Shown here: positions 1,465-22,637 of the stretch, one piece after another | Position numbering within the stretch: the first letter of the stretch is position 1 | Layout: each line of letters opens with the position of its first letter | From: Candidatus Heimdallarchaeota archaeon | Lineage (GTDB): Archaea > Asgardarchaeota > Heimdallarchaeia > Heimdallarchaeales > Heimdallarchaeaceae | NCBI GenBank assembly: GCA_030668825.1 | Contig: DAOVET010000032.1 | Coordinates: 1 to 28,348, forward strand | Direction: 5' to 3' | DNA: 28,348 bases | Position numbers and translations under genes: made by a program | Notes under the pieces: model-generated | The model's database searches: none | The model's input: only the letters and a program-made list of their open reading frames with translations | What the model was told of the DNA's origin: nothing

Positions 1465-4400
1465 GTGAATCAGATGGCAGAAGAAGACTTAGGGGAGGTA
1501 TTCGATAAAATCGATGTAGGAGTAACTGTAATTAAAAATGATAAGATTGAATTTGCAAATGATTATTTGTTACAAATCATAGGATATTCATTGAAAGAGA
1601 TAAAGGGAAAAAATTGTGTCTTTTTTGCAGCCAAAGAAGAAAAAAACAGATTGCAAAAAATTAAATCTGAAAATGATAAGCTGAATACTTACGCAAAAGA
1701 AATCGAACTTTGGATTGTAACAAAGGATGGAACTAGAAAATACATACGAAATCGTTTTTATCCAATTAGAGAGGGAGAAAAATCAAATAAATTTTTTATA
1801 ACTACTAACGATATAACAAGAAAAAAACAAAAAGAAACCAAAGTTACGGCTTCTGAGTTCAAAAAATCAAAATTCTTAGATTATCTAACTGAACATATAA
1901 TTTTTTATGATACGGACATGAAAATAATCTGGTCTAATAAGATAGCAAGTGATCTATTGGGCCAATCTCCGGAGGATATTGTTGGAGAAACATGTTATGA
2001 ACTATGGTATCAAAGAGACCAACCATGCGACAATTGCCCCGTTATTAAGGCAAGAGATTCAGGACAGGAACATATTGCAGAAGTAATAACTCCAGATCAT
2101 AAAACTTGGTTCGTTCGAGGATACCCTGTTTATGGAGATGATGGGAGTTTAATTGGAGTAGCAGAATTAGCTAGTGATATTACAGAAAGTAAACAAACAT
2201 CCAAAGAACTTCAAGAAAGTGAAGAAAGATTTAAACAGATTTTTCATAATACAAATGATGGTATCTTTGTCAGTAGAAGAGGAGATGATGGGGTATTTGA
2301 AGAGATTATTGAAGCTAACAGTGTAGCTGCTGCCATGTATGGTTACACTCGAGACGAATTCATGAAGATGAACCCATCTGACTTCATTGTTACAGGAGAA
2401 AAGGAAAGTTTTGAGTTTGTGCAAGAGTTAATGGAGAAAAAAGAACTTACTTTTGAGAGAATGCATAAAACTAAAGATGGAAGGGTGATAATTGTGGAAA
2501 TTAGTTCTCACTTATTCACTCTTGGTGATGACTTAGTCAGTTTAGCTGTTGTAAGAGATATCACTGAAAGGAAAGAAGAGCAAGATGAGTTGATAGAAAG
2601 TGAAGAAAAGTTCAGACAAATAGTTCAAAATGTAGATGAAGCTATTTTCATGTCACCCTTAACATCTGATAATATTATGGGGAAGTTTATAGAAGTCAAT
2701 TATATAGCATGTGAATGGACTGGATTTTCAAGAGAAGAACTTCTTCAAATGACACCAGTTGATTTGCATTCCCCAGAAGAAACTGTTGGACAATCAGAAA
2801 TCGGTAGAAATCTATTAGAAAGAAGTAGAACTACATTCGAAGGGTACATAATTCACAAAGACGGGAGTAAGATTCCAGTTGAATATAACACAAATATCTT
2901 CCTAATGAACAATGAAAGAGTTGTATTAACAACAGCTAGAGATTTAAGAGAAAAAATAAAAGCAAAGGAGGAGCTAACTAGTAGTGAAGAAAGATTTAGA
3001 CAGATATTCCATAATACAAGTGATGCAATCTTCTTAACTCATCTAAAAGAAGATGGTTCTTCAAGTAAATATATTGAAGCGAATGATGTAGCACTAAGAT
3101 GGTTAGGCTTTTCTAAAGAAGAATTGCTTGATAAGTTCTCTATTGATATTACAGCTCCTGAGGAAAAAGAGTACAATTCTGAATATACAAAGAAGATTGT
3201 GGACACAGGTCATGCGACTTTTGAAACTATTCTATTTTCTAAAGATAGAAAACGGATACCAGTTGAAATTAATTCACACATCTTCGAATTACAATCTCAA
3301 AAAGTAATACTTTCAATAGCAAGGGATATTACTGAAAGGAAAAAAGCCCAAAGAGACTTAATGGAAAGTGAGGAAAAGTACAGAAAATTAGTTGAAACAA
3401 TTCCCGCTGCAATTATACGTTCAGATTCATCTGGTAAAGTGACATTTGTCAATAAAAGAGCAGTTACACTTCATGGTTATGAGAATGAAAATCAATTACT
3501 TGGAAAGAATACTAATGAACTAATTGCCTATGAGGATACTTTTACAGCTCAAGATGTTCAAAGAAGAACCATAGAAGATGGATTCATTCATGACATTGAA
3601 GTTTCAATTTTAAGAAAGGACGAAACAATCATCCCAGGCGTGTTTCATGCAGCAGCTATAAAAGATAAAGAGGGAAGCGTTTTTGGTTTTATAAGTGTTG
3701 AAATTGATATTACTGAAAGGAAAAGAGCAGAAGAAGCTCTTAAAGAAAGTGAACAAAAATTTAGACAAATATTCCAAAATGCAAAAGATGCTATTTTCAT
3801 TCACAAAATAAATGAATATAACGAAATTGGGGACATGATGGAAGTAAATAAAACAGCTTGTCAGTGGTTAGGGTACACTCGAGAAGAGCTTCTAGAATTT
3901 GAAATTGATGCAAATAGTAATTTTGGTTATCTTCAATTTTCGCTGGAAATCACAGAAGATCTATTCGCCGCAGGAACAAAAACTTTCGAAACGCAAATAG
4001 AGAATAACAAAGGTGAATTGCGACCAGTGGAGTTCAGTTCCCATCTCTTTACATTGAGAGATCAACAAGTATTGCTTTCTGTAGCTAGAGATATAACTGA
4101 AAGAAAGAAAGCAGAACTGTCTATTAGGAAAAGTGAGGAGAGATATAGAACTCTTATTGAAACTTCCCCAGATGCTATTATTCTGATTGATCAAGAAGGA
4201 CGAGTTTCTTTTGCTAATCAACAGACTGCAAGTATGTATGAATATGATGACATAGAAGATATGATTGGTTTGACAACTGTTGATTTTATTGCTAGAGAGG
4301 ATCTAGAATTTGCAAATAATCAACTAAAGCTGGTTTTATCTGAAGGAAGATTGCAAAATACACACTTTATGTCATTGAAGAAAGATGGGAGTAAATTTCC

Positions 4401-5934
4401 AATAGAACTAAGTGCTTCTCTAACTACAGATGAGGAAGGGAAACCTTCAGAGATAATGGTTGTTATTGGCGATATTGAAGAAAGAATGACCGCTGAATCA
4501 GCTCTTAAAGAAAGTGAAGAAAAATTCAGACAAACTTTTGATCAATCAAATGATGGTATATTCCTACATGATTTAAGAGGAAACATTCTGGATGTCAATC
4601 TACGAGTTAAAGAGCTCTTCGGTTATTCGAAATCAGAATTTCTTCAGTTAACCATAACACAGTTGCACCCTATTACAGAGCAAGAAACATCTAAGAATGC
4701 ATTTGACATGATAGAGGAGAAGGGGTCTGTTAATTTTGAAACCAAATTTAGAAGAAAAGACGGTTCTGTCTTCCCTGCAGATGTATCTTCTAGTAAGTTT
4801 GAAATTGGAGGAAAACAGGTTGTTCAGGGAATTGTTAGAGATATAACGGAGAGAAAGAAAGCAGAAGAAGAACTTATAGAAAGAGAAGAACAATATAGAC
4901 AAATTTTCAATAATACAAATGATGCTATTTTCTTGACAAACATCGATGAAGAAATTAATAGTACCAGTCCGTTCATAGAGGTTAATGACGTAGCTTGCAC
5001 ACTATTGGGATATGAAAGGGGTGAACTTTTAAAAATGAGATCCTCTGAGATTACAGCCCCTGAAGACAGAGATGTACTTTCTGAAAACATTCATCAAATT
5101 ATAAAGGAAAGAATGACAACTTTCGAAAATACACTAATATCAAAGGATGGAAAAAGAATTCCTACTGAAATCAGTTCTCATGTTTTTGAGCTTCGAGGTG
5201 AAATGTGTGTTCTATCAGTATCTAGAGATATTACTGAGCGAAAAAACGCAGAGAGAGAATTAATGGAAAGTGAGGAAAGATATCGTAAGCTCTTCCATGA
5301 AGCAAATGATATCATTGCAATTCTGAGTATACCACGAGATGGTTCTATCGGTAATATTGTTGAAGCAAATGATCCAGCATTAGTAATGACCAAATATACA
5401 AGAGAGGAACTAGTTGGTTTGAGTCTTGTAGACCTTGTTAAGGATTTAACTGAGGAAGAGATAATTGATTATTTCGCTGAAATGATGGAAAAATATATCA
5501 TTAGATTTGAACGAGAATTTATCCGAAAAGATGGGACAACCTTCCCAGTTGAAATCACCGCAACACCCTTTACTCTTAAAGAGGAATTAACAATGTTAGT
5601 AACAGCAAGAGATATCACTGATAGAAAACGAGACGAGGAGCTTAGAAGGCAAGCTTATGATCAAATAGCTCAGAATATAGAAGATTTTGCTGAATTGGTA
5701 GATAGAATTAGAAATCCTCTAATGGGTGTAATAGGTTATGCTGAACTTTCTGAAACCTTACATTCAACAATTATAATCGAGGAAGCAAGGAAAATAGAAG
5801 AGATTACTCAAAAAATTTCAGACAGTTATCTAGAAACTGAAAAAGTAAGAAAAATTCTTAGATCTGAGATTGATTCAAAAGAAAATAATGAAGCCGTTTC
5901 AGAGAAAGTTGAAAAAGAGGAAACAAAAGAGTAA
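1465..5934 (+). CDS. Soluble multi-PAS sensor (11 PAS/PAC repeats) with a C-terminal HisKA-like helical hairpin and no HATPase domain
   Basis: Eleven units of '(E)SEE(R/K)(F/Y)R..F....D.IF ... (R)DITE(R)K'. C-terminal 'QNIEDFAELVDRIRNPLMGVIGYAEL'. No N/G1/F/G2 boxes and no TM segments. Start is GTG 1465 or ATG 1474. Confidence 0.92.
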   Translation: MNQMAEEDLGEVFDKIDVGVTVIKNDKIEFANDYLLQIIGYSLKEIKGKNCVFFAAKEEKNRLQKIKSENDKLNTYAKEIELWIVTKDGTRKYIRNRFYPIREGEKSNKFFITTNDITRKKQKETKVTASEFKKSKFLDYLTEHIIFYDTDMKIIWSNKIASDLLGQSPEDIVGETCYELWYQRDQPCDNCPVIKARDSGQEHIAEVITPDHKTWFVRGYPVYGDDGSLIGVAELASDITESKQTSKELQESEERFKQIFHNTNDGIFVSRRGDDGVFEEIIEANSVAAAMYGYTRDEFMKMNPSDFIVTGEKESFEFVQELMEKKELTFERMHKTKDGRVIIVEISSHLFTLGDDLVSLAVVRDITERKEEQDELIESEEKFRQIVQNVDEAIFMSPLTSDNIMGKFIEVNYIACEWTGFSREELLQMTPVDLHSPEETVGQSEIGRNLLERSRTTFEGYIIHKDGSKIPVEYNTNIFLMNNERVVLTTARDLREKIKAKEELTSSEERFRQIFHNTSDAIFLTHLKEDGSSSKYIEANDVALRWLGFSKEELLDKFSIDITAPEEKEYNSEYTKKIVDTGHATFETILFSKDRKRIPVEINSHIFELQSQKVILSIARDITERKKAQRDLMESEEKYRKLVETIPAAIIRSDSSGKVTFVNKRAVTLHGYENENQLLGKNTNELIAYEDTFTAQDVQRRTIEDGFIHDIEVSILRKDETIIPGVFHAAAIKDKEGSVFGFISVEIDITERKRAEEALKESEQKFRQIFQNAKDAIFIHKINEYNEIGDMMEVNKTACQWLGYTREELLEFEIDANSNFGYLQFSLEITEDLFAAGTKTFETQIENNKGELRPVEFSSHLFTLRDQQVLLSVARDITERKKAELSIRKSEERYRTLIETSPDAIILIDQEGRVSFANQQTASMYEYDDIEDMIGLTTVDFIAREDLEFANNQLKLVLSEGRLQNTHFMSLKKDGSKFPIELSASLTTDEEGKPSEIMVVIGDIEERMTAESALKESEEKFRQTFDQSNDGIFLHDLRGNILDVNLRVKELFGYSKSEFLQLTITQLHPITEQETSKNAFDMIEEKGSVNFETKFRRKDGSVFPADVSSSKFEIGGKQVVQGIVRDITERKKAEEELIEREEQYRQIFNNTNDAIFLTNIDEEINSTSPFIEVNDVACTLLGYERGELLKMRSSEITAPEDRDVLSENIHQIIKERMTTFENTLISKDGKRIPTEISSHVFELRGEMCVLSVSRDITERKNAERELMESEERYRKLFHEANDIIAILSIPRDGSIGNIVEANDPALVMTKYTREELVGLSLVDLVKDLTEEEIIDYFAEMMEKYIIRFEREFIRKDGTTFPVEITATPFTLKEELTMLVTARDITDRKRDEELRRQAYDQIAQNIEDFAELVDRIRNPLMGVIGYAELSETLHSTIIIEEARKIEEITQKISDSYLETEKVRKILRSEIDSKENNEAVSEKVEKEETKE

Positions 5935-11099: not shown

Positions 11100-12113
11100 A
11101 TGGCAATTCGAATTGGTATAAATGGTTTTGGAAGAATTGGAAGAGGGATTTTTCGAGCAGGATTTAACAATCCAGGTATTGAATTTGTTGGAATCAATGA
11201 TATTGGTGATTCAAAAACTATGGCTCATTTATTGAAGTACGATAGTGTTCATGGTCTTTTTGATCACAAAATTGAAGCAACTGATTCATATCTAATTGTT
11301 GATGATGTAAAAATACCTATTTCAAAAGAAAGGGACCCAGTAAATATTCCTTGGAAGGATTGGGGAGTTGAGATAGTTTTCGAATGTGTAGGATTTTTTA
11401 GAACATTTGAGCTTGCGTCTAAGCACATTGAAGGAGGAGCGAAAAAAGTAATTCTTTCTGCACCCGATAAAGGTAAAGTAAAACCTATTCCTGCTATTGT
11501 GTTAGGGGTTAATGAAGACAAATTCAATCCCACAGAGGATGTTGTTATCTCTAACGCTAGCTGTACAACCAACTGTTATGCCCCAGTAACCAAGGTTTTG
11601 GATGACGCATTTGGTATTGAATCAGGATTTATGACTACTATTCATTCCTATACAACAGATCAAAGATTATTAGACTTACCTCATAGTGATTTACGTAGAT
11701 CAAGATCTGCAGCTCTATCTATGATTCCAACATCTACAGGTGCCGCTACAGCAGTAGGAAAAGTACTGCCACATCTTCAAGGAAAACTCGATGCTATGTC
11801 AATTAGAGTTCCAACTCCAAATGTTTCTCTAATAGATGCGGTTTATACTCTTGGAAAAGAAGTAACTGCAGAAGAGGTTAACAACAAATTCATTGAAGCA
11901 TCAAAAAGCAATCTAAAAGATATCTTAGCTGTTTCTAATGAACCTCTAGTTTCTATAGATTACAATGGAAATCCGTTCTCTGCAACTGTTGATTTACCTC
12001 TAACAAAAGCAATTAAGAATCAAATCAAAGTTGTTGCTTGGTATGACAATGAAACTGGATACTCAACAAGAATGGTAGACTTAGCAAAATATGTAGCAAG
12101 TAAGGGATTATGA
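11100..12113 (+). CDS. gap: Type I (bacterial/eukaryote-type) phosphorylating glyceraldehyde-3-phosphate dehydrogenase
   Basis: 'GINGFGRIGR', 'LLKYDSVHG', catalytic 'SNASCTTNC', 'TTIHSYT', 'IPTSTGAA', 'RVPTPNVS', 'WYDNETGY'. SD GGTGAT precedes ATG 11100, which is preferred over TTG 11079. Confidence 0.97.
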   Translation: MAIRIGINGFGRIGRGIFRAGFNNPGIEFVGINDIGDSKTMAHLLKYDSVHGLFDHKIEATDSYLIVDDVKIPISKERDPVNIPWKDWGVEIVFECVGFFRTFELASKHIEGGAKKVILSAPDKGKVKPIPAIVLGVNEDKFNPTEDVVISNASCTTNCYAPVTKVLDDAFGIESGFMTTIHSYTTDQRLLDLPHSDLRRSRSAALSMIPTSTGAATAVGKVLPHLQGKLDAMSIRVPTPNVSLIDAVYTLGKEVTAEEVNNKFIEASKSNLKDILAVSNEPLVSIDYNGNPFSATVDLPLTKAIKNQIKVVAWYDNETGYSTRMVDLAKYVASKGL

Positions 12114-12116
12114 CAT

Positions 12117-12285
12117 GAATTTTGTACAAATTCTTTAGAAGTGCCTGAAGCACATCATGGGGACGCCACATCCCCTCCTACACCGCCCACATCATCTTAA
12201 GATGCTTACGGTTCGCTTTTGGAAGTTCGTTGGATATAGCCCCGAGGATCACCATAGTAATGGTGCATAGCTATAATCCTTCAAC
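12117..12285 (-). ncRNA. Candidate structured non-coding RNA of unknown family
   Basis: 72/145 G+C over 12141-12285 (hand count) in an AT-rich genome. Multiple stems on the minus strand, G-U pairs favouring that strand, and a TATA box starting 26 nt upstream of the first paired G. Confidence 0.6.
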
Positions 12286-12303
12286 GTATAATCTACACTA
12301 CCC

Positions 12304-12313
12304 TATTTAAATA
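12304..12313 (-). promoter_or_regulatory. TATA box (TATTTAAATA) of the candidate ncRNA
   Basis: Minus-strand TTTAAATA at 12311-12304 lies at canonical archaeal spacing to 12285. It sits between two convergent genes, so no CDS could use it. Confidence 0.6.
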
Positions 12314-12345
12314 CCAAAAAAATGTACAAAAAACAGGTTATAATG

Positions 12346-12711
12346 CTACATTTCTTCTAGACTTTTTATCAAAGCAACTAAGGCTTTGTATAAACAGTCT
12401 GAGCATTCTTTAGCATCAGGATCCATGAACAGTAGAGTTTCTCTTGTGTTTTCATAGACTTTTTGAGGTATTGTTCTACCTCTGAGCTCTATTCTTTTCT
12501 TTTTAGTTGGACAATAAATTACATTTTCATCATCCAAAACCACAGCGTTTAAACAAAATGTAGGGTTAGCAAACTCTTCCAAATCTGCAGTAAGAAGATC
12601 ATCTGGATCATAAAAAGAGACTAATAAAATCATTTCAAGCTCATCTTCAAGAACACAATAAGTAGTATATTCAATCTCTCTATGCATTGGACAGGGTTGC
12701 ATTATCCACAT
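12346..12711 (-). CDS. Small Cys-rich hypothetical protein, possible metal binder
   Basis: 121 aa with 'CPMH', two lone Cys, 'YCP' and 'CSDC'. No overlap with neighbours. Alternative start ATG 12702. Confidence 0.75.
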   Translation of the reverse strand: MWIMQPCPMHREIEYTTYCVLEDELEMILLVSFYDPDDLLTADLEEFANPTFCLNAVVLDDENVIYCPTKKKRIELRGRTIPQKVYENTRETLLFMDPDAKECSDCLYKALVALIKSLEEM

Positions 12712-12817
12712 CAGAATCTACGCCTTTGATATAGACATCTGCTAATGATAAATAAAAGTCTTACATAATACCTACGAGATATGAATCAAGTGAAAGAAAA
12801 AGGGAGAAAAAGGGAAA

Positions 12818-15800
12818 TTATTGTCTTATAGGTGCCCTACTTCTGTAATCGTAGTAAATTTTGGTTATTTCCCCAACAATTTCTTCATTAAAGGTTACAA
12901 TTAAAAGTGGATCTCCACTTGGAGCTTTGTGTCCTAAGAAACCTTCTTCTATACCATCTCTGGTTCCCATCATTACTGTTAGGTTTGAATCATCCTTTAC
13001 AACTACATTCCCCATACCAAGCATTTTGCTTAAGATAACTTTATCTTCATCTGTATGAGCTGTTGTATTTGTTACAATTTCTAGTTTTCTAGCAAATGTT
13101 TCAATGAATTCAGAATCTATCCAATTTAGTCTTGGGCAAATTACTGTAGCAGAAGACTTTGTATTTCTCAAGAGAGACATCATAGTTCCATTAACTTGTT
13201 CGTGACCTGTTACTATCCACATATCTTCAATTGGATTTGGTTCAATTCCTGATCCCAGCGATAAAACACTTTTGATCAATTTCATTGATTCCCCAGTTGC
13301 ATCTAAAGCTCCCCCAATCTTATTTGGAATTGAACTTAGTGTTCCTGAAATACTAGTGTCTACATTTTCAATTTCTTGTTGAGTTCCTTTGATTATATTC
13401 TCTTTAAAACTCATAAGTTTGGAGCTGTAATCATCTTTCTCAGTATTTACAATCTTTGAATCCTCTTGAGCTGCATTCAATTTTTCTGTTAGAGAGTTCA
13501 AATTGGAATCAAATAGGTCAGTTAAAGTTTTTTCTAAATTACTGAGGTCTGCATTAACCGCATCATTTCCGGAAGTTATAGCCTCTGTAAGAGCATCCTT
13601 TGTTCCTTGTATATTAGTTACCAGGGCAGATGAATTTGAATCTGAATTAGTAATAAAGCTATTAACTTGATGAGACATGTTTAATTCATAATCATTCTTT
13701 TCTTTTTCAAACTCATTTTGAATTTCTGTGACATTATTAACAAAGTCAGTTGCCATGCGTTCATAGGATTTCTCTAGATCTCTTTGAACGCTAGTAAACA
13801 TTGTATCAATTTCTGTCTGAGCACCTACTTGAAATTCTTTTATGGAAGAGCTCAAATCGGTTGCAAATGCATCAGAATCAGTTTTAACCCATTTTGGATA
13901 ATTTGCACCAAGCTTTTGAAGCTCTCCCTTAGTAGTTGCAAGTGCTTCATCTAATAATGATGATTTCTCAGGAGAAACATTTAATTCCGCCAATACACCT
14001 TCAGTACCTTCAATAAACTGTTGGACTTCTTGCTCAATTAAATCATTAATCTCGGTTTCAACCTTTGCTGTTTGAGCACTATAATTTTTAGCAGCCTCAT
14101 CTAGAGTGACAGAAATGTCAGTATCAAGAGCCTCTTTCGCAGATTTAAATTCACTTTGCAAAGATTTCATTGTTACATCCATTGAGGAAGTAGCTTTGGT
14201 CACTAATTTGGAATGATCTTCGATGTTTGTCTTGAGTAATTCCTGAAGATTAGTTGTTACTTCAATATTATTCTTCTTCATTACATCAAGAATTTCTTGT
14301 TTTGTTGTTTGCAGAGCTTCTAGACCATCTTGAATCGTCAGATGAATTTCTGTTTGACCTTCATTATCTTCAGTTGAATCTGGAACTTGGAGAAGTTCAT
14401 CTAATGAACCACTTATGGATTTAGTTATATCCGAAAATGCTTTAGATTCAGCTCCTATTACATCAGCTAATGATTTAGTGCTTGTCCCTTGTAGCTCATT
14501 AAATTGCTCTTCATAAATAGTATAAGTTTCTTCAATAGTTCTTTTCATATCATCTGAAGATGCTGTAAATTGACTACTGATTTCACTCCTTGAAATGTCA
14601 AATGATTGGCTGGTTTTTTGAAGGGTATCTATTGTGAATCTTGCTAAATCTTCTAACCTTATATTCATTTTTTCAAATATCTCATTAGACAAAGAATTCA
14701 TTGAATTTGTCAATGTTTGAATCATTTCCTCCATTTTATTTCCAACATTCTCCTTTACTAGCTCAATGTCTCTATTCATGCTTCCGATTAGTTGAGCCAT
14801 TCGTGGTCCCTCTTCTTTTCCAAATACTTTTTGAAGCTGTTTCTCATCTAATCCTTGAAATGCTTGGTTAATCACTTCAATTTTTGCAATTGATGATTTA
14901 AGCTGATCATCTAGCTCTTGTAATCTTTCAATGCTAGCTTGATAGTTAATCTGAACAACATTAGGCACTTCATCTCTAACATCTCTTCCTCTTTTAGAGA
15001 ATTCATCTGAAAAAACTTCAACATCAGATTTGAATTTGTTTTCCTTTTCAGTTATTAGATTTTGAATTGTTTCATTGTTATCCTTAACGTTTTCCTCAAT
15101 ATTAGAGATAACAGTGGCTTTTAATTCATTAATATGAGAAGTAAAGTTTTCTTTGAATTCCTCATGTGAGGTGGCAAACTTTTCTTTCCGAGCTTTCAAA
15201 GCCTTTTCATATTTAGCAGTTGTTTTTGATAATTTATCTAAATACGCGTTAGTTGATTCTCTAAATGCAGTCATTATGTCTTCTACAAATAGTTTGATTT
15301 GATTACTTACGTTTTCAATTGAAGAAGACAGATTTTCTTCAAACAGATTGAAACCAATTTCTATTCCTGAATTAAGTAAAGATAGTAAACTATCGCTATT
15401 CTTTTTGAATTCCTTAAGATATGAGTTTAAATCATTACTCAGTTTAACTTTCATTTCCTCTGTTTTTGCTTCAGCTTGTGTAATTAAATCTCCCAGCTTT
15501 TCAACAGAATCAACTTTAGTTTTATTCAGTAAATCAACAAACTGATTCTCATTCCCTCTCAAAATATTTACCGCTGTTTCTTTTGAATTATCAATTGAGG
15601 TTCTAATTCTGTCTGTTGTTGCGTCTTCAAGTTTTTTCAATTCATCATTTAATGAAATAAGAACTTGCTGTACTGTTACTTGATATTCGTCAAGCTTTTT
15701 CTCATAGTTTGCGATAATTTTGTTTACTGTATCAGAAAGCTTCTTAGAGGAATCTCTCACTACTACGTTTGAATCTGCTGAGATCTTTTTAACAGTTTCA

Positions 15801-16591
15801 TCAGTAACAGTTATAATTACATCTTTTCGTTCTGCTGCTGCTTCTATGAATTCCTGAAGCTGAACTGATAAGCTTTCTTTTATCCCCCCGACTTTTTCAA
15901 GAAGAGCATCAAGCTGTATTTGAGTTCTATCATCATGTTCTTTTTGCAGAAAACCTAGTCTTTCCTCTATTTTTACTTTGAATGAATCATGATGTTCACC
16001 TATTTTGTGAATCGTAGAATCAAAAGAACTAAGAACATTCTCTTTTACTCTTTGTGCAGTTTTTGCAATGGCATCACTGTTTGTTTCTGAAATATTGGAT
16101 GATTCTGATTTTAACCTTTCAATTATTTCAGCTGTTTCAGTTTTTCCTGACGAAATTACGTTTGTTATTGAATCCAAAAATTTAGTGGCAGTTGATGCAA
16201 TTTCAGAAGCATGATCATCAACATTTTCTGTAATGTTTACATGAAATGCTGATAACTGTGACCTGAAATTATTCATTGTTTTATTCCAATCTTCTTTTAC
16301 ATCATCACTTAATGCTTTTAATTCAGTTTCTAGACGAATAGATACATCCTCTGTAAGCTTAATTTGTGGGGGGAGTGGAATGAAATACGATGTTCCCTCT
16401 TGGTTTTTAGCTTTGATTTCTCTAATGTATCCTTTGCCAGCTAAACTATTTAGAGCACTTTGGATTATATTTGCGGGGTGTTTGTAATATGTTTGAATTT
16501 GACCGATGGTTCTAAAACCATATTGAACAATTATTGAATAAACTTGAACTTCATCTTTCGATAACCCAATCTTTTCTAATGTTCCTTCCAT
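12818..16591 (-). CDS. Giant TrmB-like protein: N-terminal wHTH, ~1000-aa coiled coil, C-terminal TrmB effector/PLD-fold-like domain
   Basis: N-term 'LEKIGLSKDEVQVY...ALNSLAGKGYI...YFIPLPP' resembles the TrmB wHTH. C-term 'WIVTGHEQV...LLRNTKSSATVICP...RDGIEEGFLG' resembles the TrmB C-terminal domain. The middle is amphipathic helical. Start is ATG 16591 or GTG 16600. Confidence 0.8.
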   Translation of the reverse strand: MEGTLEKIGLSKDEVQVYSIIVQYGFRTIGQIQTYYKHPANIIQSALNSLAGKGYIREIKAKNQEGTSYFIPLPPQIKLTEDVSIRLETELKALSDDVKEDWNKTMNNFRSQLSAFHVNITENVDDHASEIASTATKFLDSITNVISSGKTETAEIIERLKSESSNISETNSDAIAKTAQRVKENVLSSFDSTIHKIGEHHDSFKVKIEERLGFLQKEHDDRTQIQLDALLEKVGGIKESLSVQLQEFIEAAAERKDVIITVTDETVKKISADSNVVVRDSSKKLSDTVNKIIANYEKKLDEYQVTVQQVLISLNDELKKLEDATTDRIRTSIDNSKETAVNILRGNENQFVDLLNKTKVDSVEKLGDLITQAEAKTEEMKVKLSNDLNSYLKEFKKNSDSLLSLLNSGIEIGFNLFEENLSSSIENVSNQIKLFVEDIMTAFRESTNAYLDKLSKTTAKYEKALKARKEKFATSHEEFKENFTSHINELKATVISNIEENVKDNNETIQNLITEKENKFKSDVEVFSDEFSKRGRDVRDEVPNVVQINYQASIERLQELDDQLKSSIAKIEVINQAFQGLDEKQLQKVFGKEEGPRMAQLIGSMNRDIELVKENVGNKMEEMIQTLTNSMNSLSNEIFEKMNIRLEDLARFTIDTLQKTSQSFDISRSEISSQFTASSDDMKRTIEETYTIYEEQFNELQGTSTKSLADVIGAESKAFSDITKSISGSLDELLQVPDSTEDNEGQTEIHLTIQDGLEALQTTKQEILDVMKKNNIEVTTNLQELLKTNIEDHSKLVTKATSSMDVTMKSLQSEFKSAKEALDTDISVTLDEAAKNYSAQTAKVETEINDLIEQEVQQFIEGTEGVLAELNVSPEKSSLLDEALATTKGELQKLGANYPKWVKTDSDAFATDLSSSIKEFQVGAQTEIDTMFTSVQRDLEKSYERMATDFVNNVTEIQNEFEKEKNDYELNMSHQVNSFITNSDSNSSALVTNIQGTKDALTEAITSGNDAVNADLSNLEKTLTDLFDSNLNSLTEKLNAAQEDSKIVNTEKDDYSSKLMSFKENIIKGTQQEIENVDTSISGTLSSIPNKIGGALDATGESMKLIKSVLSLGSGIEPNPIEDMWIVTGHEQVNGTMMSLLRNTKSSATVICPRLNWIDSEFIETFARKLEIVTNTTAHTDEDKVILSKMLGMGNVVVKDDSNLTVMMGTRDGIEEGFLGHKAPSGDPLLIVTFNEEIVGEITKIYYDYRSRAPIRQ

Positions 16592-16605
16592 TTTAATCAC
16601 TTCTT

Positions 16606-18054
16606 TTATAATTGATCTTTTATTGTTTCAAGATTCCTTTCTAGTCTTTCTAATCGACCTATGAGATCTTTTCTCAACTTTTCTGCTTGTTCTGCTTTTT
16701 TGATATTGTCCTTTGCTTCAATTTCAAGATTAGTTACAGTGGAATCTTGTGTTTCAACAATCTTGCTTTTTGCGTTCGAGGACATAGTTGAAATTTCAGC
16801 TATAGTATCTTTTTGAGCTGAATCTATTCTTGAGGTAATTTGTTGACTTGTTCTTTCTAAGGAAACTTTTACATCAGTAATTTCCTTTTCAAGAATCGAT
16901 ATTCTTTCTTCTGCTGTTTTTGCAGCATTACCTTGTAGATTTTCAGATTTTTCAACAACATTTGTTAGAATATTATCTAAATGGCTTCTAATATCACCCT
17001 GTTCCCTTGACACAAAGGATTTTATTTCTTGTTTAATTGAATCTGATTGTTCAGAGAGAGTTGATAAAATTCCATCCACTTTATTGTTGAAATCCCCTTC
17101 AAACTCTTTAAGTTCAGAATCATGTTCATTATATTGTTTATTTGTTAAATCATCATAAGATCCTAGCATTGATTCTTTAGATGAATTGAAATTTGACATA
17201 GTTACTTCATTAACATCAATCATTCCAGTTTCATATTCTGCTAAAACGTCTTGTACTTTTGCAATTTCATCAACAAGATACTTGTCCATGGAATCGGTTA
17301 CATCAGATAATTCAGATTGAATTCTTTGAACTGCGTTATTAACTAGCTGTCCTAATTCACTTTTTATTCGATTAAAGCTTTCAAAGACAGATTCCATGTT
17401 TTCAGTTAACTTATCACCATACTCTGATCTTAAATGTTCTATAGATTCTTTCATGATGTTTTGAGCAATATTAATGTTAGATTCAATCTTTGCTCTCATA
17501 TCTTCTGAATTGTTCTTGAAGGTTGAAAGATTATTTCCCTTTACAGTACTAACATCTTCTTTTACACTATCAATTGCTTTTCTAAAAGCATTAACTTGAT
17601 TGTTTGCTAATCGTTCTAAATCTTGTTCATGGTTTGTAAGAGTGGTTCTTATTTTTTCACCAAATGAAGAAGAATACTCAACAAAGTTGGTTTTTCCTTC
17701 ATCTAAAATAGAAGAAATAGATTCATGTAGTTTAGATAATTCATTTTTTGTATTGTCTAACTTCGATACTACAGATTCTGATTGACTTTTAGTCCATTCA
17801 TCAATTAGTTTTTTATTTTCAGATACATTTGCTTCAATAATATCATCTAATGACTGTCTATTTGTGTCGATTAAATTGCGTAAATTCTCATTCAAACCAA
17901 TAAACTTGTTTTGAACTAAAGTTGCTAGAATTTGATAAAATTGATGTAATTCCTTCAAGTTTTCTAGAGATTCTTTAAAATTGACAATCTCTCCATCTAA
18001 ATTTTCAATTTCTCTTTTCACTTTTTCTAAATCTTTTGTTATTCTTTCTGACAT
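16606..18054 (-). CDS. All-helical long coiled-coil (apolipoprotein-like) hypothetical protein
   Basis: About 482 aa, no Pro or Cys seen, E/K/S/N/L/I-rich with periodic hydrophobics. SD GGTGA overlaps the upstream stop and precedes ATG 18054 (track start GTG 18063). Confidence 0.85.
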   Translation of the reverse strand: MSERITKDLEKVKREIENLDGEIVNFKESLENLKELHQFYQILATLVQNKFIGLNENLRNLIDTNRQSLDDIIEANVSENKKLIDEWTKSQSESVVSKLDNTKNELSKLHESISSILDEGKTNFVEYSSSFGEKIRTTLTNHEQDLERLANNQVNAFRKAIDSVKEDVSTVKGNNLSTFKNNSEDMRAKIESNINIAQNIMKESIEHLRSEYGDKLTENMESVFESFNRIKSELGQLVNNAVQRIQSELSDVTDSMDKYLVDEIAKVQDVLAEYETGMIDVNEVTMSNFNSSKESMLGSYDDLTNKQYNEHDSELKEFEGDFNNKVDGILSTLSEQSDSIKQEIKSFVSREQGDIRSHLDNILTNVVEKSENLQGNAAKTAEERISILEKEITDVKVSLERTSQQITSRIDSAQKDTIAEISTMSSNAKSKIVETQDSTVTNLEIEAKDNIKKAEQAEKLRKDLIGRLERLERNLETIKDQL

Positions 18055-18063
18055 CTTACTCAC

Positions 18064-19827
18064 CTAAAAATCCAATTCTTTTTCGATATTTTCAATAGAA
18101 ATTTCTTCTACTTCTTTTGGCTCAGGTTCTTCTAAAGGAATCTTTATTTCCTCTTCTCTCCTGTAAATCATATTTGTAAAATAATTGTGATGTATGCTTC
18201 CCTTTTCAAACATCTCAACTGCTTTTTTCCTAATTCTTTCGAAGTTAGTTTTGTCCCCCATGTTCTTATAACAATCAAGGCTTGATTTCAAGTAACCTCG
18301 TATAGCGTATTCACTTTTTTCTACAAGCAGTGTTACTGATAGTTTTTCAAATTGATCTGCAGCTCTTGCAAATGATCTATTTGCTTTAAGTTCTTCTTCA
18401 ACTGTTTTGTAATAAAAGGCAGATTTTAGGTAAAGTCTAGCTGCAAAATAAAAGTTCTTTTCTTCGAATTCTCTTGCGATTTTTTCGCAGAATGCTCCTG
18501 CTTGCTCTAATTCATTAATCTGTTCAAATTGTTGAGTATTGATCAAAGTTAAATCATATGCCTTTTGATATATTTTTCTCTCAATACATATATTAGCGAT
18601 TTTCTGAATTTTTGAAGCTACTGCAAAATCAGCAAGTCTGTCTCTAATTTTAACTGATAAGTTCCCAACTTTTTCTATAATCTTATCTGTTGGGGAGATG
18701 TATTTACTCAAATCCTCTAGAATGGAATCAAGTGTAACCATTAGTGAGGTAAGGGGACTGAATAATCTCATTCGGAACTTCATTGCTGTTAATAAGGATT
18801 CTTGCACCAAACGAGCATGTGTTGAACCAATCCACAAAAAACCTTTTTCTTCAAGTGACTTGAGAGCTTCAAGGGGGACATATGCAGTTAATTGTTCAAT
18901 CAAAAAAAGATTTTCATTGAATGAAGCCATTTCTGATAAGACAGACTCTTCTTCATCTGTTAGACTAAAGACCTTAGGAATATTTCTTTCAACAAAATCA
19001 TCGATTCCAAATCCAGATTTGATGAAGAAGTTACCTAAGTTTAGATCAAAGAAAGTTCTTTGACTATTATTAACAAGTTCTAGAATCCCTTTATTCACAA
19101 GTTGAGGTGCAATTCGTCGAAGATAAATCTCAGTATCTGAAACAGATAGAGGTTCTATACTAAAAATCTTTGAATTGTCTGTTAAATTTTTTTCATAGTC
19201 AAAATCAAAAAGATATTGCTTTGTTAAAGCAGAGATAATTACAATGTTGTATCCTCGAATAGATAGTTCCTTGATTATGGTTGAGAAGATTGGGTAAAAT
19301 TCTTGAATATCCATCAATTTGAATAAATGAATATTATCTACAAAGAAATACAAAGTTGTTTGTGTCTCCTGTAGCTTTTGGTTAACTTTATCTAGATTCT
19401 CGAAAAATAAATTGACATAAATCTCAGTATAAGTCTGGGAAGTTTGTTTCTTGATGTTCTCTTTGAGGGCAGGAAGATCATCACCTAATTTCTTTTTTCC
19501 TACTTTTTCAAGAACTGAACGCCAAGCTGGAGATATTTCATCAATCATATTTTTCCATTCTTTGAAGAACCCTAGCAAATCTTTTTCTTCAGGCACTAAA
19601 TCAAACATATGGAAAATATCTTTCCTTACTGATATAGAGGAAAATAATTTTCTTAAAAGAGAACTTTTTCCTGTTCCTTCATCACCAACTAGTAGTATAG
19701 AATGAGTTTTTTTTCCTTCTTTCTTCATGTCTTCTTTAATCTGACTAAAGTCTTTGATAATGTCTCTCAACCCATAAAAATCGTCAGGATTGCAAGGTTG
19801 GAAAAAGTTTGAATCTTGAGTACTCAT
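18064..19827 (-). CDS. STAND/archaeal-ATPase-like P-loop NTPase with wHTH and C-terminal SNAP-like TPR solenoid
   Basis: 'P.DFYGL' N-motif, Walker A GDEGTGKSS, Walker B-like LYFFVDNIH, 'IEPLS..D', wHTH-like 'ALKSLEEKGFLW', TPR-like 'AGAFCEKIA..FE...AARLYLKSAFYYK..E....ANRSFARAA'. SD GAGGT upstream. Confidence 0.8.
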   Translation of the reverse strand: MSTQDSNFFQPCNPDDFYGLRDIIKDFSQIKEDMKKEGKKTHSILLVGDEGTGKSSLLRKLFSSISVRKDIFHMFDLVPEEKDLLGFFKEWKNMIDEISPAWRSVLEKVGKKKLGDDLPALKENIKKQTSQTYTEIYVNLFFENLDKVNQKLQETQTTLYFFVDNIHLFKLMDIQEFYPIFSTIIKELSIRGYNIVIISALTKQYLFDFDYEKNLTDNSKIFSIEPLSVSDTEIYLRRIAPQLVNKGILELVNNSQRTFFDLNLGNFFIKSGFGIDDFVERNIPKVFSLTDEEESVLSEMASFNENLFLIEQLTAYVPLEALKSLEEKGFLWIGSTHARLVQESLLTAMKFRMRLFSPLTSLMVTLDSILEDLSKYISPTDKIIEKVGNLSVKIRDRLADFAVASKIQKIANICIERKIYQKAYDLTLINTQQFEQINELEQAGAFCEKIAREFEEKNFYFAARLYLKSAFYYKTVEEELKANRSFARAADQFEKLSVTLLVEKSEYAIRGYLKSSLDCYKNMGDKTNFERIRKKAVEMFEKGSIHHNYFTNMIYRREEEIKIPLEEPEPKEVEEISIENIEKELDF

Positions 19828-20039
19828 ATGACCTCACGTTATATTTCATTCTGTTTATATTAACCATATCTTATAAAATCTATGAATGTTCATAATATCC
19901 ACTAACACTATAGATTTTTTATCAAAATTAACTCTGTTGAAATACATTCTTAAAGTATATCTTACTTGTAAGTAGAAAACATTAAAAGTGTAAATGATAG
20001 ATGTAGCATGACTCAAACGCAGAGGTGTAAATATGATAG

Positions 20040-20459
20040 GTGAACGTTTTGTTAAATCCAGCAGAACTGGAAAGTTTAGACTACTTAGAAGAAGGGATGG
20101 CCTTTGCTCAAGAGAGGATAAGGAAACTTGAAAAAGATAACTTATTTTTGTTTGATTTACTTAATCAGAGTTTAATCATTTTGTTCGATCAATTAAATGA
20201 TAAACAGAAAGGAATTTTCTTTGAAAGTTATAGTCTAATAGAAAGAAGAAAAATATCTCTAAACCGTTTAGCAGAAAAAATTTCAACAAAGTTGGATATT
20301 TCCTTCTCAACAGCTAAATGGAATATAACTAAACTCAGAGATTTTGGTTTCTTCGAAACTATTGGTATGAGAGGTAACACCAAAACCACTCTAATATCAA
20401 CAATTATAGGTGACACACTCTATTCCACTCTAGGGCAGATCAAAAACAAAAATCGGTAA
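20040..20459 (+). CDS. Winged helix-turn-helix DNA-binding protein
   Basis: 'SLNRLAEKISTKLDISFSTAKWNITKLRDFGFF' HTH followed by a beta-wing 'ETIGMRGNTKTTLISTIIG'. GTG start is uncertain. Confidence 0.75.
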   Translation: MNVLLNPAELESLDYLEEGMAFAQERIRKLEKDNLFLFDLLNQSLIILFDQLNDKQKGIFFESYSLIERRKISLNRLAEKISTKLDISFSTAKWNITKLRDFGFFETIGMRGNTKTTLISTIIGDTLYSTLGQIKNKNR

Positions 20460-20516
20460 AAACACAAACAATAAATGAGAGATTCTATTCTCAGAATATA
20501 ATGAGGTAGAAAAACA

Positions 20517-21437
20517 ATGAATGAATCATTCGAGAAGTATAAAAAATCTGGACATATCTTAGCGAAGACTCTCGAATATGCTAAAAGCTTAGTTAAACCT
20601 GGGATAAAGCTATTGGATATTGCAGAAAAAACTGAAGACTATATCCGAGGTCAATCTGCAGTTCCAGCTTTTCCTGTAAACATTTCTATAAATGAAATCG
20701 CTGCACATTATTCTCCAAGAATAGAAGACGATAGTATCATACCAGAAGCATCTATTGTAAAAATTGATGCTGGTGTCTCTGTTGATGGATATCTTACAGA
20801 CGCAGCAAGAACCCTAGTTTTTGATGAAAAATGGCTACCAATGAAAAATCTTGCTAGAAAAGCTCTCAACTCTGCCTTAAATGCTGTTCAGGTTAATGAA
20901 AGTGTTTTTAGAATCGGAGAAATTGTTCAAAAAACTATAGAAGAAGAAGGTTTCAAACCCATTGTGAATTTAAGTGGGCATTCACTTGCTCATTATTCTT
21001 TACATGATGGTATTTCTATTCCTAATTATAGTGTATCTAAAGAAGCTAGAGATTCCACACATGTATTCCAAATAGGCAAAGCTTACGCAATTGAACCTTT
21101 TGTTACTTCAGGAATAGGGAGAGTAGTCGATACTGATCAAGAAACAATTTTCAGACATTATAAAAAAATAGATGCATCATCATTATCAAACCAATTCAGA
21201 GAAATTTACAGATTTATTGATGATAACTTCAATAGATTACCCTTCAGTTGGAGATGGGTTTACAATGCTGGCTACTCAAAAGAAAAAGTACATAAAGTAA
21301 GGAATTTTCTACTAAAACGTAATATTGTTCATGGATATCCTGTTCTAATTGAAGCTACAGATGCTCCAGTAACACAAGAAGAAGAAACTGTGTACATAGG
21401 AGAGGACAAAATACATATCCTGACAAAAAATAAATAG
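20517..21437 (+). CDS. map: Methionine aminopeptidase type II (archaeal)
   Basis: 'PAFPVNISINEIAAHYSP', metal ligands in KIDAG, LTDAA, LSGHSL, AIEPF and TQEEETV, plus the type II helical insertion ('LPFSWRW...GYPVL'). SD GAGGT. Confidence 0.95.
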   Translation: MNESFEKYKKSGHILAKTLEYAKSLVKPGIKLLDIAEKTEDYIRGQSAVPAFPVNISINEIAAHYSPRIEDDSIIPEASIVKIDAGVSVDGYLTDAARTLVFDEKWLPMKNLARKALNSALNAVQVNESVFRIGEIVQKTIEEEGFKPIVNLSGHSLAHYSLHDGISIPNYSVSKEARDSTHVFQIGKAYAIEPFVTSGIGRVVDTDQETIFRHYKKIDASSLSNQFREIYRFIDDNFNRLPFSWRWVYNAGYSKEKVHKVRNFLLKRNIVHGYPVLIEATDAPVTQEEETVYIGEDKIHILTKNK

Positions 21438-21452
21438 AAAAAGAAATGAGGT

Positions 21453-22637
21453 TTAAATTATCAGATCTTCAAGCTCTCTTGAATAAGGAGTTATTAATTC
21501 AGAACTATCTTCAGTTATTATCACAGTGTCAGAGTGTCTAAAACCACCAAACTTATACTCATATATTCCAGGTTCACATGTAAAAACCATTCCTGGTTTC
21601 ATTATCTCTTCGACTCCTATGTCTAAGAAAGGCGCTTCATGCCCTTCAAGTCCTATAGCATGTCCAGTGTGATGTTGAACAAGATGGAAAACACCTTCAT
21701 CTTTGAGGACTTTTCTTGCAGCTTTATCTACTTCACTACATGGAATGTGAGGTTTAAATGCATCTAACGCAGCATCTTGTGATTTTTTCATTACATCATA
21801 GTATCTTTTTTGTTTCTCATTAGGTGGACCAATAAACATTGTTCTTTCCAATTCAGAATGATATCCAGAAACATTTGCAGACGCACCAGTAACCAAAACA
21901 TCTCCCTTTTTGAATATTGTCTTTTGAATTACTGAATGTGGTATAGCTGACCATTCTCCAATTTGCCCCCTATATCCCGCTCTAGCTGGAAGTAACCCTC
22001 TAGGAATGAATCCTTCCAGATTTTCAAGCATTTTTTCAGATGCTTCCATGCAAGCTTGTAAAGAAACTTCTACTTCATTTTTACCTTCAGCGGTATAATC
22101 TTGTAACAAATGGTGAGCTAAATCGCCATACTTGGCTGAAATCTTAATTAAACGGAGCTCTTCTTCATCCTTCATTTTTCTCATTTCGTTGATTAGATTT
22201 GAGTGTAACTCTGTTGTAGCTTTACCTTCGAGTAGATCTGTTAGTTTGGGTCCTTCGTATCCCCAGTAACTTGAAAATGATGGAGATTCCACCCCAATTT
22301 TTGTATTTGTAACTTTTCTTTCTTCAAGCCTATTAATAAAGACATTTGCTGGATGTTTTTCATCAGGATATTCAAAATAAATTTCTCTTTCTACCCAGGG
22401 AATTTTCTCAATAAGATGTTCTCTTTCCAATCGAGGAACGTAAAACCAAGGTTCCTGAGAACGAGGGAGAACTAGGCAAATCGGTCTTTCAGTTGGAATA
22501 AAGTGATAACCTGTTAAATAATAAATTGATAATGGACTGAAGAAAATCATTGAACCAAGTTCTTTTTTATCCATGAAATCATTGACTCTTTCAACTCGTC
22601 TAATGTGGTTTTCTTTTGATATTGAATACTTATTCAT
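21453..22637 (-). CDS. M24 pita-bread hydrolase (Xaa-Pro peptidase/creatinase family) with a non-canonical metal site
   Basis: Creatinase_N-like N-domain, 'R.MKDEEEL', 'SAIPH', 'GYHSELERT', 'HHTGHAIGLEGHEAP', 'GMVFTCEPGIY', 'GFRHSDTV'. Confidence 0.9.
   Translation of the reverse strand: MNKYSISKENHIRRVERVNDFMDKKELGSMIFFSPLSIYYLTGYHFIPTERPICLVLPRSQEPWFYVPRLEREHLIEKIPWVEREIYFEYPDEKHPANVFINRLEERKVTNTKIGVESPSFSSYWGYEGPKLTDLLEGKATTELHSNLINEMRKMKDEEELRLIKISAKYGDLAHHLLQDYTAEGKNEVEVSLQACMEASEKMLENLEGFIPRGLLPARAGYRGQIGEWSAIPHSVIQKTIFKKGDVLVTGASANVSGYHSELERTMFIGPPNEKQKRYYDVMKKSQDAALDAFKPHIPCSEVDKAARKVLKDEGVFHLVQHHTGHAIGLEGHEAPFLDIGVEEIMKPGMVFTCEPGIYEYKFGGFRHSDTVIITEDSSELITPYSRELEDLII

Follow-up and report, generated by a model that had tools for sequence, protein, structure and literature searches.

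The 28,348-nucleotide window analysed here, the contig DAOVET010000032.1 from the Asgard archaeon Candidatus Heimdallarchaeota archaeon, carries on its minus strand three co-directional and tightly packed open reading frames (ORFs), which encode a STAND-type nucleoside triphosphatase (NTPase), a middle protein (MID), and a giant TrmB-type protein. An earlier note on this DNA had described three co-directional genes with spacers of 0 to 14 nt, and its coordinates hold. The NTPase gene (18064-19827) encodes 587 aa. The MID gene (16606-18054) encodes 482 aa from its likely start at ATG 18054, within an ORF (16606-18063) that gives 485 aa when read from a GTG. The giant gene (12818-16591) encodes 1257 aa from its likely start at ATG 16591, within an ORF (12818-16600) that gives 1260 aa when read from GTG 16600. 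As judged from the sequence, the two ATG codons are likely to be the true starts; the giant is recorded in the protein collection at 1257 aa, and a congeneric MID ortholog has 482 aa. Residue numbers below refer to the 1260-aa frame for the giant and to the 485-aa frame for the MID core.

The junctions between these genes are short. The TAG stop of the NTPase gene (18066-18064) is followed by the GTG and then by the ATG at 18054, which leaves a spacer of 9 nt between NTPase and MID, and a Shine-Dalgarno-like GGTGA (18060-18064, minus strand) precedes MID and overlaps the NTPase stop, as had been noticed for the 485-aa gene. The MID stop lies at 16608-16606, and the giant's ATG at 16591 stands 14 nt further on. 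Immediately ahead of the NTPase ATG is a GAGGT (19831-19835), and a TATA-box-like element, TTTTATAA, can be read at 19871-19878 on the minus strand, 44-51 nt upstream of this ATG, where it may act as a promoter element. The pyrimidine/oligo-T tract that had been seen after the last gene (about 12792-12817, minus strand) lies directly 3′ of the giant stop and would be terminator-like in function. The G+C content is ~33%.

The giant begins with a TrmB winged helix-turn-helix (wHTH) at aa 8-75 (PF01978, E 5.5e-9, 36.2 bits with the cut-off at 25.6), in agreement with the DNA-binding-type wHTH proposed before, and the wHTHs of giants from distant lineages also score above the Pfam TrmB cut-off. 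The next helix (aa 76-125) corresponds to the dimerization helix of TrmB and TrmBL2; wHTH and helix together occupy 16226-16579 on the minus strand and are conserved across 9 giants. In the conservation profile, the best-conserved parts of the giant are the wHTH with its helix, up to about aa 125, and the last 170 residues, which form a C-terminal alpha/beta PLD-like domain of the TrmB/TrmBL2 type (12818-13336, minus strand, about 170 aa). This assignment comes from an AlphaFold2 (AF2) model, Foldseek, and VIA-align. The last 172 residues were modelled as an alpha/beta domain with a predicted local distance difference test score (pLDDT) of 85.5, and Foldseek ranked TrmBL2 (5bpd, E 1.6e-9) first, followed by TrmB (2f5t and 3qph) and then by PLD-fold proteins. 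In VIA-align, the highest identities (16-18%) were to TrmBL2 and TrmB, and the helix leading into the domain aligned with TrmBL2 residues 84 onward, while a search of the C-domain profile against the sequences of the PDB returned nothing useful (best E 0.8). The nearly invariant residues of the domain are K60, P68, R126, D127, and E130 (domain numbering); no histidine is found among its conserved residues, so that no HKD catalytic motif is evident.

The chain of the giant stops at the last helix of the PLD-like domain and the sugar-binding subdomain is not present; the giant thus ends as TrmBL2 does. The TrmB-effector-like domain that had been proposed is therefore present as a C-terminal TrmB/TrmBL2-type domain, but it is the PLD-like domain and not the sugar-binding subdomain. 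Pfam and NCBIfam scans of the giant found no ABC/SMC ATPase head. In PMC4877046, TrmB and TrmBL2 are described as having in common the order of HTH, dimerization helix, and C-terminal domain, and TrmBL2 as an abundant, tetrameric protein without the additional sugar-binding subdomain, which covers DNA non-specifically and forms a stiff filament on it. These comparisons place the giant among the DNA-binding-type proteins of the TrmB family; by homology with TrmB and TrmBL2 it would bind DNA.

Between its end domains the giant contains ~1000 residues of 11-residue (hendecad) repeats, and MID is an all-helical, proline-free hendecad repeat. Both proteins have a hydrophobic period of 3.65 (11/3) and autocorrelation maxima at 11, 22, 33, and 44, and BLOSUM self-similarity is highest at lags that are multiples of 11, out to lag 231. 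The global period is 3.65-3.68 in 33 giants and 46 MIDs, with a spectral power of at least 249 compared to at most 123 in shuffles. Since this whole-length power is far above that of the shuffles, the repeat register must be coherent over hundreds of residues; along the N-arm of the giant the local period, taken in successive windows, is 3.62-3.72. The hydrophobic stripe takes up ~3-4 of 11 positions, and the polar face is acidic and rich in S/T/N/Q. Amphipathic coiled coil had been claimed for both rod proteins. The long amphipathic helical repeats are there, but a period of 3.65 makes them hendecads rather than classical heptads. The period also explains several matches to other families, namely the sub-threshold matches of the window's two rod proteins to Pfam Apolipoprotein (PF01442; 50.1 and 68.9 bits against a cut-off of 90), the match of the MID ortholog profile to ApoA-IV (3s84, E 1.4e-16), with ApoA-I also matched, and the matches of the repeats to PADLOC ZorA models (E 3.9e-16 for the giant), which involve the tail part of these models only. 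One distant ortholog scores above the Apolipoprotein cut-off (157.5 bits). No Pfam family was matched above its cut-off by MID, and a search of the ESM Atlas with MID yielded sub-threshold apolipoprotein-like clusters only.

The repeats of the giant are laid out symmetrically. An N-arm of phase-coherent hendecads (about aa 90-580, 14861-16333, minus strand) and a C-arm of hendecads equal to it in length (about aa 585-1085, 13346-14848, minus strand) meet at a conserved central island, the putative apex (aa 535-667, 14600-14998, minus strand). In the conservation profile, the middle of the rod drifts in sequence as a spacer would, and the island is the only conserved stretch inside the rod. It contains two breaks at which the period is lost, R-[DE]-E-x-P at aa 542-546 and F-G-K...G-P at aa 593-599. 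A hidden Markov model (HMM) of the island matched 32 of 33 giants, with lengths of 1176-1812 aa, and in each of them the match fell 0.50-0.52 of the way from the N-terminal to the C-terminal domain; the sole miss was the 1123-aa protein of a two-gene variant described below. The N-arms range from 375 to 709 aa and the C-arms from 379 to 681 aa, and their lengths are correlated with r 0.986, a value which, like the one given below for MID, is inflated by kinship as the relatives are not independent, but which spans ~10 length classes.

Comparison of closely related length variants provided a second line of evidence. In three lineages, insertions or deletions come in equal-sized pairs, the two members of which mirror each other across a point within the island. 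In the window's genus, the 1256-aa and 1474-aa forms (54.5% identity) differ by 106 + 104 aa; in family f23, the 1339-aa and 1812-aa forms differ by 231 + 241 aa; and in family f20, two nested pairs of 33/33 and 40/33 aa were found. The center of this symmetry is near aa 581 in the numbering of the window, between the two island breaks. Equal arms and paired indels are expected for arms that pack against each other in antiparallel fashion, as in SMC, Rad50, and MukB, and what is found in the giant is the signature of such a fold-back layout, as far as sequence can tell. A search by eye for Gly/Pro breaks mirrored between the N-arm and the C-arm of the window's giant revealed no clear pattern. 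At ~0.15 nm per residue, the arm is estimated at ~70 nm in the window's giant and at ~110 nm in the longest (1812-aa) forms.

In MID, the only well-conserved stretch among orthologs of 425-773 aa is a central core of ~110 residues with an invariant E278 (aa 191-299, 17167-17493, minus strand, from the ortholog alignment). This core stands at 0.49-0.53 of the protein length in all 45 complete MIDs (425-773 aa), and the arms on its two sides (161-329 and 146-334 aa) are correlated in length with r 0.998. The position of the core at the midpoint and the equal arms indicate that MID is built on the same symmetric plan as the giant. Homology between the giant island and the MID core was also considered; hhalign gave a probability of 77% but an identity of 7%, and the match was taken as helical noise.

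The third protein has a P-loop of the AAA_16 family (E 9.7e-9, above the Pfam cut-off), with weaker Pfam matches to ATPase_2, NACHT, and nSTAND. An AF2 model built on 22 orthologs (mean pLDDT 85.6) contains a beta-alpha P-loop core (aa 43-224), helices to aa 286, a winged helix of three helices and a hairpin (aa 291-340), and a ten-helix solenoid (aa 343-551), with the last 29 residues disordered. On the minus strand, the P-loop, helical, and winged-helix domains (aa 1-345) correspond to about 18793-19827, and the TPR-like helical solenoid (aa 346-551) to about 18175-18792. The best PDB match by Foldseek was the Pyrococcus STAND-TPR protein 6mfv (E 2e-8), and the further top matches were Avs3, SAMD9, the archaeal ATPases 2qen and 2fna, Orc1/Cdc6, Apaf-1, CED-4, NOD2, and MalT (8bob), with Avs4 and SIR2-STAND also among the matches; the TM-scores were low (0.24-0.32) because the domains are oriented differently. 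When the profile of the NTPase was compared with PDB sequences, only P-loop matches were obtained, plus a weak match of the TPR-like part to alpha-SNAP/Sec17 (E 0.04). The Pfam scan of the NTPase matched no TPR model, and the solenoid is TPR-like by fold only. Walker A G51 and G53 and Walker B D164 are invariant in all 22 NTPase sequences, and Walker A K54 is kept in 20 of them and replaced by R in the remaining two. Thus, with the Walker motifs, the module of nucleotide-binding, helical, and winged-helix domains, and the C-terminal repeat solenoid, the modelled protein has the features of a STAND NTPase, and the model and Foldseek bear out the STAND-like NTPase with a TPR solenoid that had been read from the sequence.

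An acidic C-terminal tail of the NTPase (aa 552-587, 18067-18174, minus strand) is conserved only in the window's own family; other families have no such tail. In the model it is disordered; its end is a conserved short motif, and it could serve as a docking peptide.

Of 41 relatives, 40 have the NTPase, mostly as a single copy. Among 301 genomes drawn from the phylum, its profile was positive in 87 at E <= 1e-5, including every drawn genome of the window's order besides the window's own (43 of 43; families f1 28/28, f2 1/1, f3 11/11, and f4 3/3). Positives were also found in families f5 (11 of 21), f7, f9, f12, f15, f20, f22, and f23, of which f20 bears the source name Candidatus Borrarchaeum, and the two most sampled families gave weak partial matches only (f11 4/76, f14 2/68). 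The full-length family is small: in a set of 1.84 billion representative proteins, about 30 clusters match at E 1e-48 or better, and generic ATPases appear from E 1e-24; nearly all complete full-length relatives have 548-631 aa.

Linkage of the three genes was examined in 53 loci from 53 Asgard genomes, which were selected by an NTPase match and scanned with four HMMs, so that all counts are conditional on the NTPase. The trio is present in the same order in 35 of the 53 loci and in 10 Asgard families; both end domains of the giant are there in 32 loci, and in three the giant is cut by the contig end. Four more loci break off inside MID or directly behind it, and three are uninformative. Across loci the gene junctions are often overlapping or abutting, when the first possible starts are taken, and the synteny is kept down to about 20% identity. 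The conserved synteny that the earlier note had asked about is therefore found across Asgard genomes, with a linkage far beyond chance. Two loci, in families f29 and f30, have a two-gene variant, in which an NTPase of 627-636 aa is directly followed by a protein of 1110-1123 aa with the C-domain. This variant (L059:3887-9149 and L060:9323-14592) has no separate MID and at best a weak wHTH match; L060, the one of the two that was tested, gave no match to the central island.

We propose that the three proteins form a DNA-anchored fold-back rod or tether module, controlled by the NTPase, which organises, bridges, or tethers the chromosome; we give this reading about an even chance of being correct. 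The giant would be a DNA-binding protein of the TrmBL2 type whose dimerization helix is interrupted by a long hairpin, two hendecad arms of ~490 residues running antiparallel and joined at the conserved apex. This would bring the winged helix and the PLD-like domain, from the two ends of the chain, together as a TrmBL2-like head, from which a rod of ~70 nm would project. MID would be a shorter rod on the same plan, with two equal arms around its conserved central core. The STAND NTPase, acting through its TPR-like domain, would provide a nucleotide-dependent switch for rod assembly and disassembly or for partner attachment, and the rod tip, the companion rod, and the switch could make regulated contacts that bridge or tether DNA. 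Slow evolution is seen in the DNA-binding head, the apex and core pieces, and the NTPase, while the arms keep only their period and length; this is why the giant is read as a DNA-anchored rod with regulated contacts. As to the DNA-attached filament suggested earlier, the mirror symmetry of both rod proteins argues for a hairpin arm on a DNA-bound head and not for an end-to-end filament.

Several observations weigh against the tether module as proposed. First, the mirror symmetry is equally compatible with a hairpin and with an antiparallel dimer of two chains. We favour folding within a single chain, because the wHTH and its helix would then adjoin the C-domain, as they do in TrmB and TrmBL2; the VIA-align match between TrmBL2 and the helix before the C-domain points the same way. 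Second, the VIA-align scores of the C-domain are tied between TrmBL2/TrmB and the PLD-fold nucleases (NucT Z 16.5; TrmBL2 Z 16.0, with a root-mean-square deviation of 2.2 over 128 residues; Nuc 15.9; TrmB 15.5-15.6), and the assignment to the TrmB family therefore rests also on the N-terminal domain and the domain order. Third, the arm length of MID does not scale with that of the giant and the two have no fixed ratio, which speaks against a simple side-by-side co-assembly. Fourth, 9 of the 53 loci (families f5 and f7) have the NTPase and a MID of 717-721 aa without an adjacent giant, and in two f5 genomes a giant of 1539-1545 aa lies 8-18 kb away on the other strand; the giant is thus less tightly tied to the cluster than NTPase and MID are to each other. 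Fifth, hydrolysis by STAND NTPases requires a second acidic residue in Walker B. Directly behind D164 the window's family has N, whereas N, D, E, S, C, or P occur elsewhere, and the position at +3 is H or Q in the window's family compared to an acidic residue in the other families. Hydrolysis by the NTPases of the window's family may be slow or absent; the same N and H/Q variants would fit a slow, switch-like NTPase. Finally, the closest solved sequence analogues of the repeats are the lipid-binding apolipoproteins.

The presence of MalT among the structural matches of the NTPase allows a different reading of the operon, in which the NTPase is one half of a split MalT-like switch. Its TPR-like domain would sense a ligand, the giant under its control would be an ordinary, though oversized, gene regulator, and the helices would be oligomerisation spacers. 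TrmB-family proteins are mostly transcription regulators, according to PMC4877046, and the operon layout and a small divergent ORF upstream are compatible with regulation. However, a rod of ~1000 residues under a strict equal-arm constraint, in forms of 1176-1812 aa, is hard to explain for a repressor, the giant has no sugar-binding subdomain, and a second dedicated rod protein is always encoded beside the NTPase. Such a switch is unlikely in our estimate.

The similarity to apolipoproteins raises the question of whether the rods are a membrane or lipid scaffold, with 11/22-mer amphipathic helices lying on a lipid surface and a wHTH that either ties DNA to the membrane or is vestigial. The 11-residue period is common to both groups of proteins, and the Pfam and profile matches given above, including the ortholog above the cut-off, point the same way. 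Apolipoproteins are built of Pro-punctuated 22-mers, and these are missing from the proline-free MID, while the window's giant and MID stay below the Pfam cut-off and the similarity may reflect periodicity alone. Furthermore, the narrow stripe and the acidic polar face fit helix-helix packing, and equal arms are expected for paired helices but not for helices lying on a surface. We consider a lipid scaffold improbable.

A lower probability still attaches to the possibility that these are cytoskeletal or scaffold rods unrelated to DNA, like the coiled-coil-rich proteins of bacteria, in which the TrmB-like ends have been reused as protein-protein modules. Long helical rods encoded with an assembly-type NTPase would suit such a role, as would the spacer-like drift of the rod middle. 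Against it stand the conservation of the wHTH and the following helix, which with that of the C-domain is the highest in the giant, and the wHTHs of distant lineages, which remain above the Pfam TrmB cut-off. The least probable rival, for which we see very little chance, is anti-virus defence with an Avs-like STAND sensor, a role that the earlier note had listed: Avs3, Avs4, and SIR2-STAND are among the structural matches and PADLOC reports ZorA, LmuB, and mad8, but the PADLOC matches are confined to helical tails or stretches (ZorA tail, LmuB, LeoBC) or to a 60-residue P-loop (mad8), no nuclease, protease, TIR, SIR2, or other effector domain was found in the Pfam, NCBIfam, and PADLOC scans, and, while defence systems are usually patchy, this cluster is single-copy, near-universal in the order, syntenic at low identity, and set in a housekeeping neighbourhood.

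Compared to known systems, the proposed tether module combines familiar folds in an unfamiliar way. The giant resembles TrmBL2, the Thermococcales chromatin protein (5bpd, 5box, 5bqt), in the order of wHTH, dimerization helix, and PLD-like C-domain and in the absence of a sugar subdomain. While TrmBL2 chains have ~260 residues, the giant has ~1000 residues of hendecads, which would form an antiparallel arm set into its dimerization helix, and its gene is linked to those of a STAND NTPase and a second rod protein. With the sugar-sensing regulators TrmB and TrmBL1 (3qph, 2f5t), the giant shares the TrmB wHTH and a C-domain (Z 15.5-15.6, 17-18% identity), but it lacks their C-terminal sugar-binding subdomain and carries the giant rod. 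The STAND-TPR NTPases (6mfv from Pyrococcus, MalT, Avs) have the same succession of P-loop, helical domain, winged helix, and helical repeats as the window's NTPase, which differs in having no fused effector or DNA-binding domain and in belonging to a small specific family. The exchangeable apolipoproteins (ApoA-I, ApoA-IV, ApoE, and apolipophorin III) show an amphipathic periodicity of 11/22 residues like that of the window's rods, which are cytoplasmic archaeal proteins without proline punctuation; this similarity probably reflects periodicity and not descent. ZorA of the Zorya system also has a long helical tail, but the N-terminal part of the model (PADLOC label MotA/ExbB/TolQ) is unmatched and the ZorB-D partners are absent.

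The likeness to SMC, Rad50, and MukB is one of layout. In the giant, too, arm lengths co-vary and indels come in pairs, and an antiparallel arm that turns at the conserved apex would link its two ends. Unlike these proteins, it has no ABC ATPase head by Pfam and has a DNA-binding head instead, the NTPase being a separate STAND protein; its apex has no Cys hook (cysteine makes up 0.1% of the protein), and its repeats are hendecads rather than heptads.

The public annotation of the three proteins is limited to "hypothetical," "ATP-binding," "HTH domain-containing," or "TrmB." The family libraries (Pfam, NCBIfam, and PADLOC) named nothing beyond the end domains, and a literature search found no description of the module, with the limit that supplementary tables of Asgard gene-family surveys might list the families. 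The statement that no named system has this composition thus agrees with both searches. The folds are known, but the architecture and the three-gene module would be new.

Among known prokaryotes, the Asgard archaea stand closest to eukaryotes, and the organisation of their DNA and cell space has a bearing on the origin of the eukaryotic cell. The module is found, in single copy, in the window's order and in several other Asgard classes. It would join a chromatin-type head to a rod tens of nanometers long, using the equal-arm principle of SMC with unrelated parts, and it has a switch-type ATPase in the same operon. A more far-reaching version of this proposal, which we regard as possible but doubtful, is that the module is a third kind of long-armed chromosome-organising machine in Asgard archaea, besides SMC/Rad50/MukB, in which a TrmBL2-like head sits on a rod of ~70-110 nm, and in which the conserved tip, the companion hairpin rod, and the STAND ATPase connect distant DNA segments or fasten the nucleoid to some other structure of the cell. 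If this were true, the module would be a candidate prokaryotic forerunner of DNA-anchored nucleoskeletal tethers.

The genome of the window also encodes two paralogs of the giant, of 749 aa (contig C63, L025:3466-5715) and 765 aa (contig C44, L026:6145-8442), which have the TrmB wHTH, hendecads, and the same C-domain and have no NTPase neighbour. Open frames with C-domain matches in other Asgard genomes measure 326-336, 550, 727-810, and about 1400 aa. This range of lengths suggests that the arm may have been lengthened stepwise within a TrmB-type family. Some ORFs a few genes away from the C44 paralog resemble, by eye, a small Ras/Rab-type GTPase and proteins of KaiC/RecA-like and roadblock-like type.

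The housekeeping neighbourhood of the cluster includes genes for GAPDH, two M24 peptidases, DnaK, DnaJ, and an aminotransferase. In 13 loci, from families f1 and f3, the cluster has a methionine aminopeptidase gene next to it; this M24 gene is upstream and divergent in f1 (20517-21437, plus strand, in the window) and downstream of the giant in f3 (L013:3841-4770). In families f3 and f4, two more co-directional genes stand upstream of the NTPase (L013:12316-16345, L014:10772-13977, L016:207-4342). One codes for 742-821 aa with no match in Pfam, the other for a CARDB-domain protein of about 602-604 aa, and the window has neither of them at that place.

Just downstream of the giant is a co-directional, Cys-rich ORF of 121 aa (12346-12711, minus strand) without a Pfam match. 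Homologs of 121-133 aa occupy the equivalent position in 7 loci of the window's family, and the ORF may be a fourth member of the cluster there. The small divergent ORF upstream of the NTPase (20040-20459, plus strand, 139 aa) also has no Pfam match; its position is kept in 5 loci from two genera, and it could be a local regulator. Elsewhere in the window, positions 1465-5934 on the plus strand encode a protein of 1489 aa that consists almost entirely of PAS domains (11 PAS_9 stretches), with no output domain recognised.

Three sequencing runs labelled metatranscriptomic or RNA-Seq, and flagged as probably DNA, contain short contigs over parts of all three genes. In a marine-sediment run labelled metatranscriptomic, likewise flagged as probably DNA, contigs ~95% identical to the window cover most of the three genes (12000-21500), which indicates that a related strain occurs in another study.

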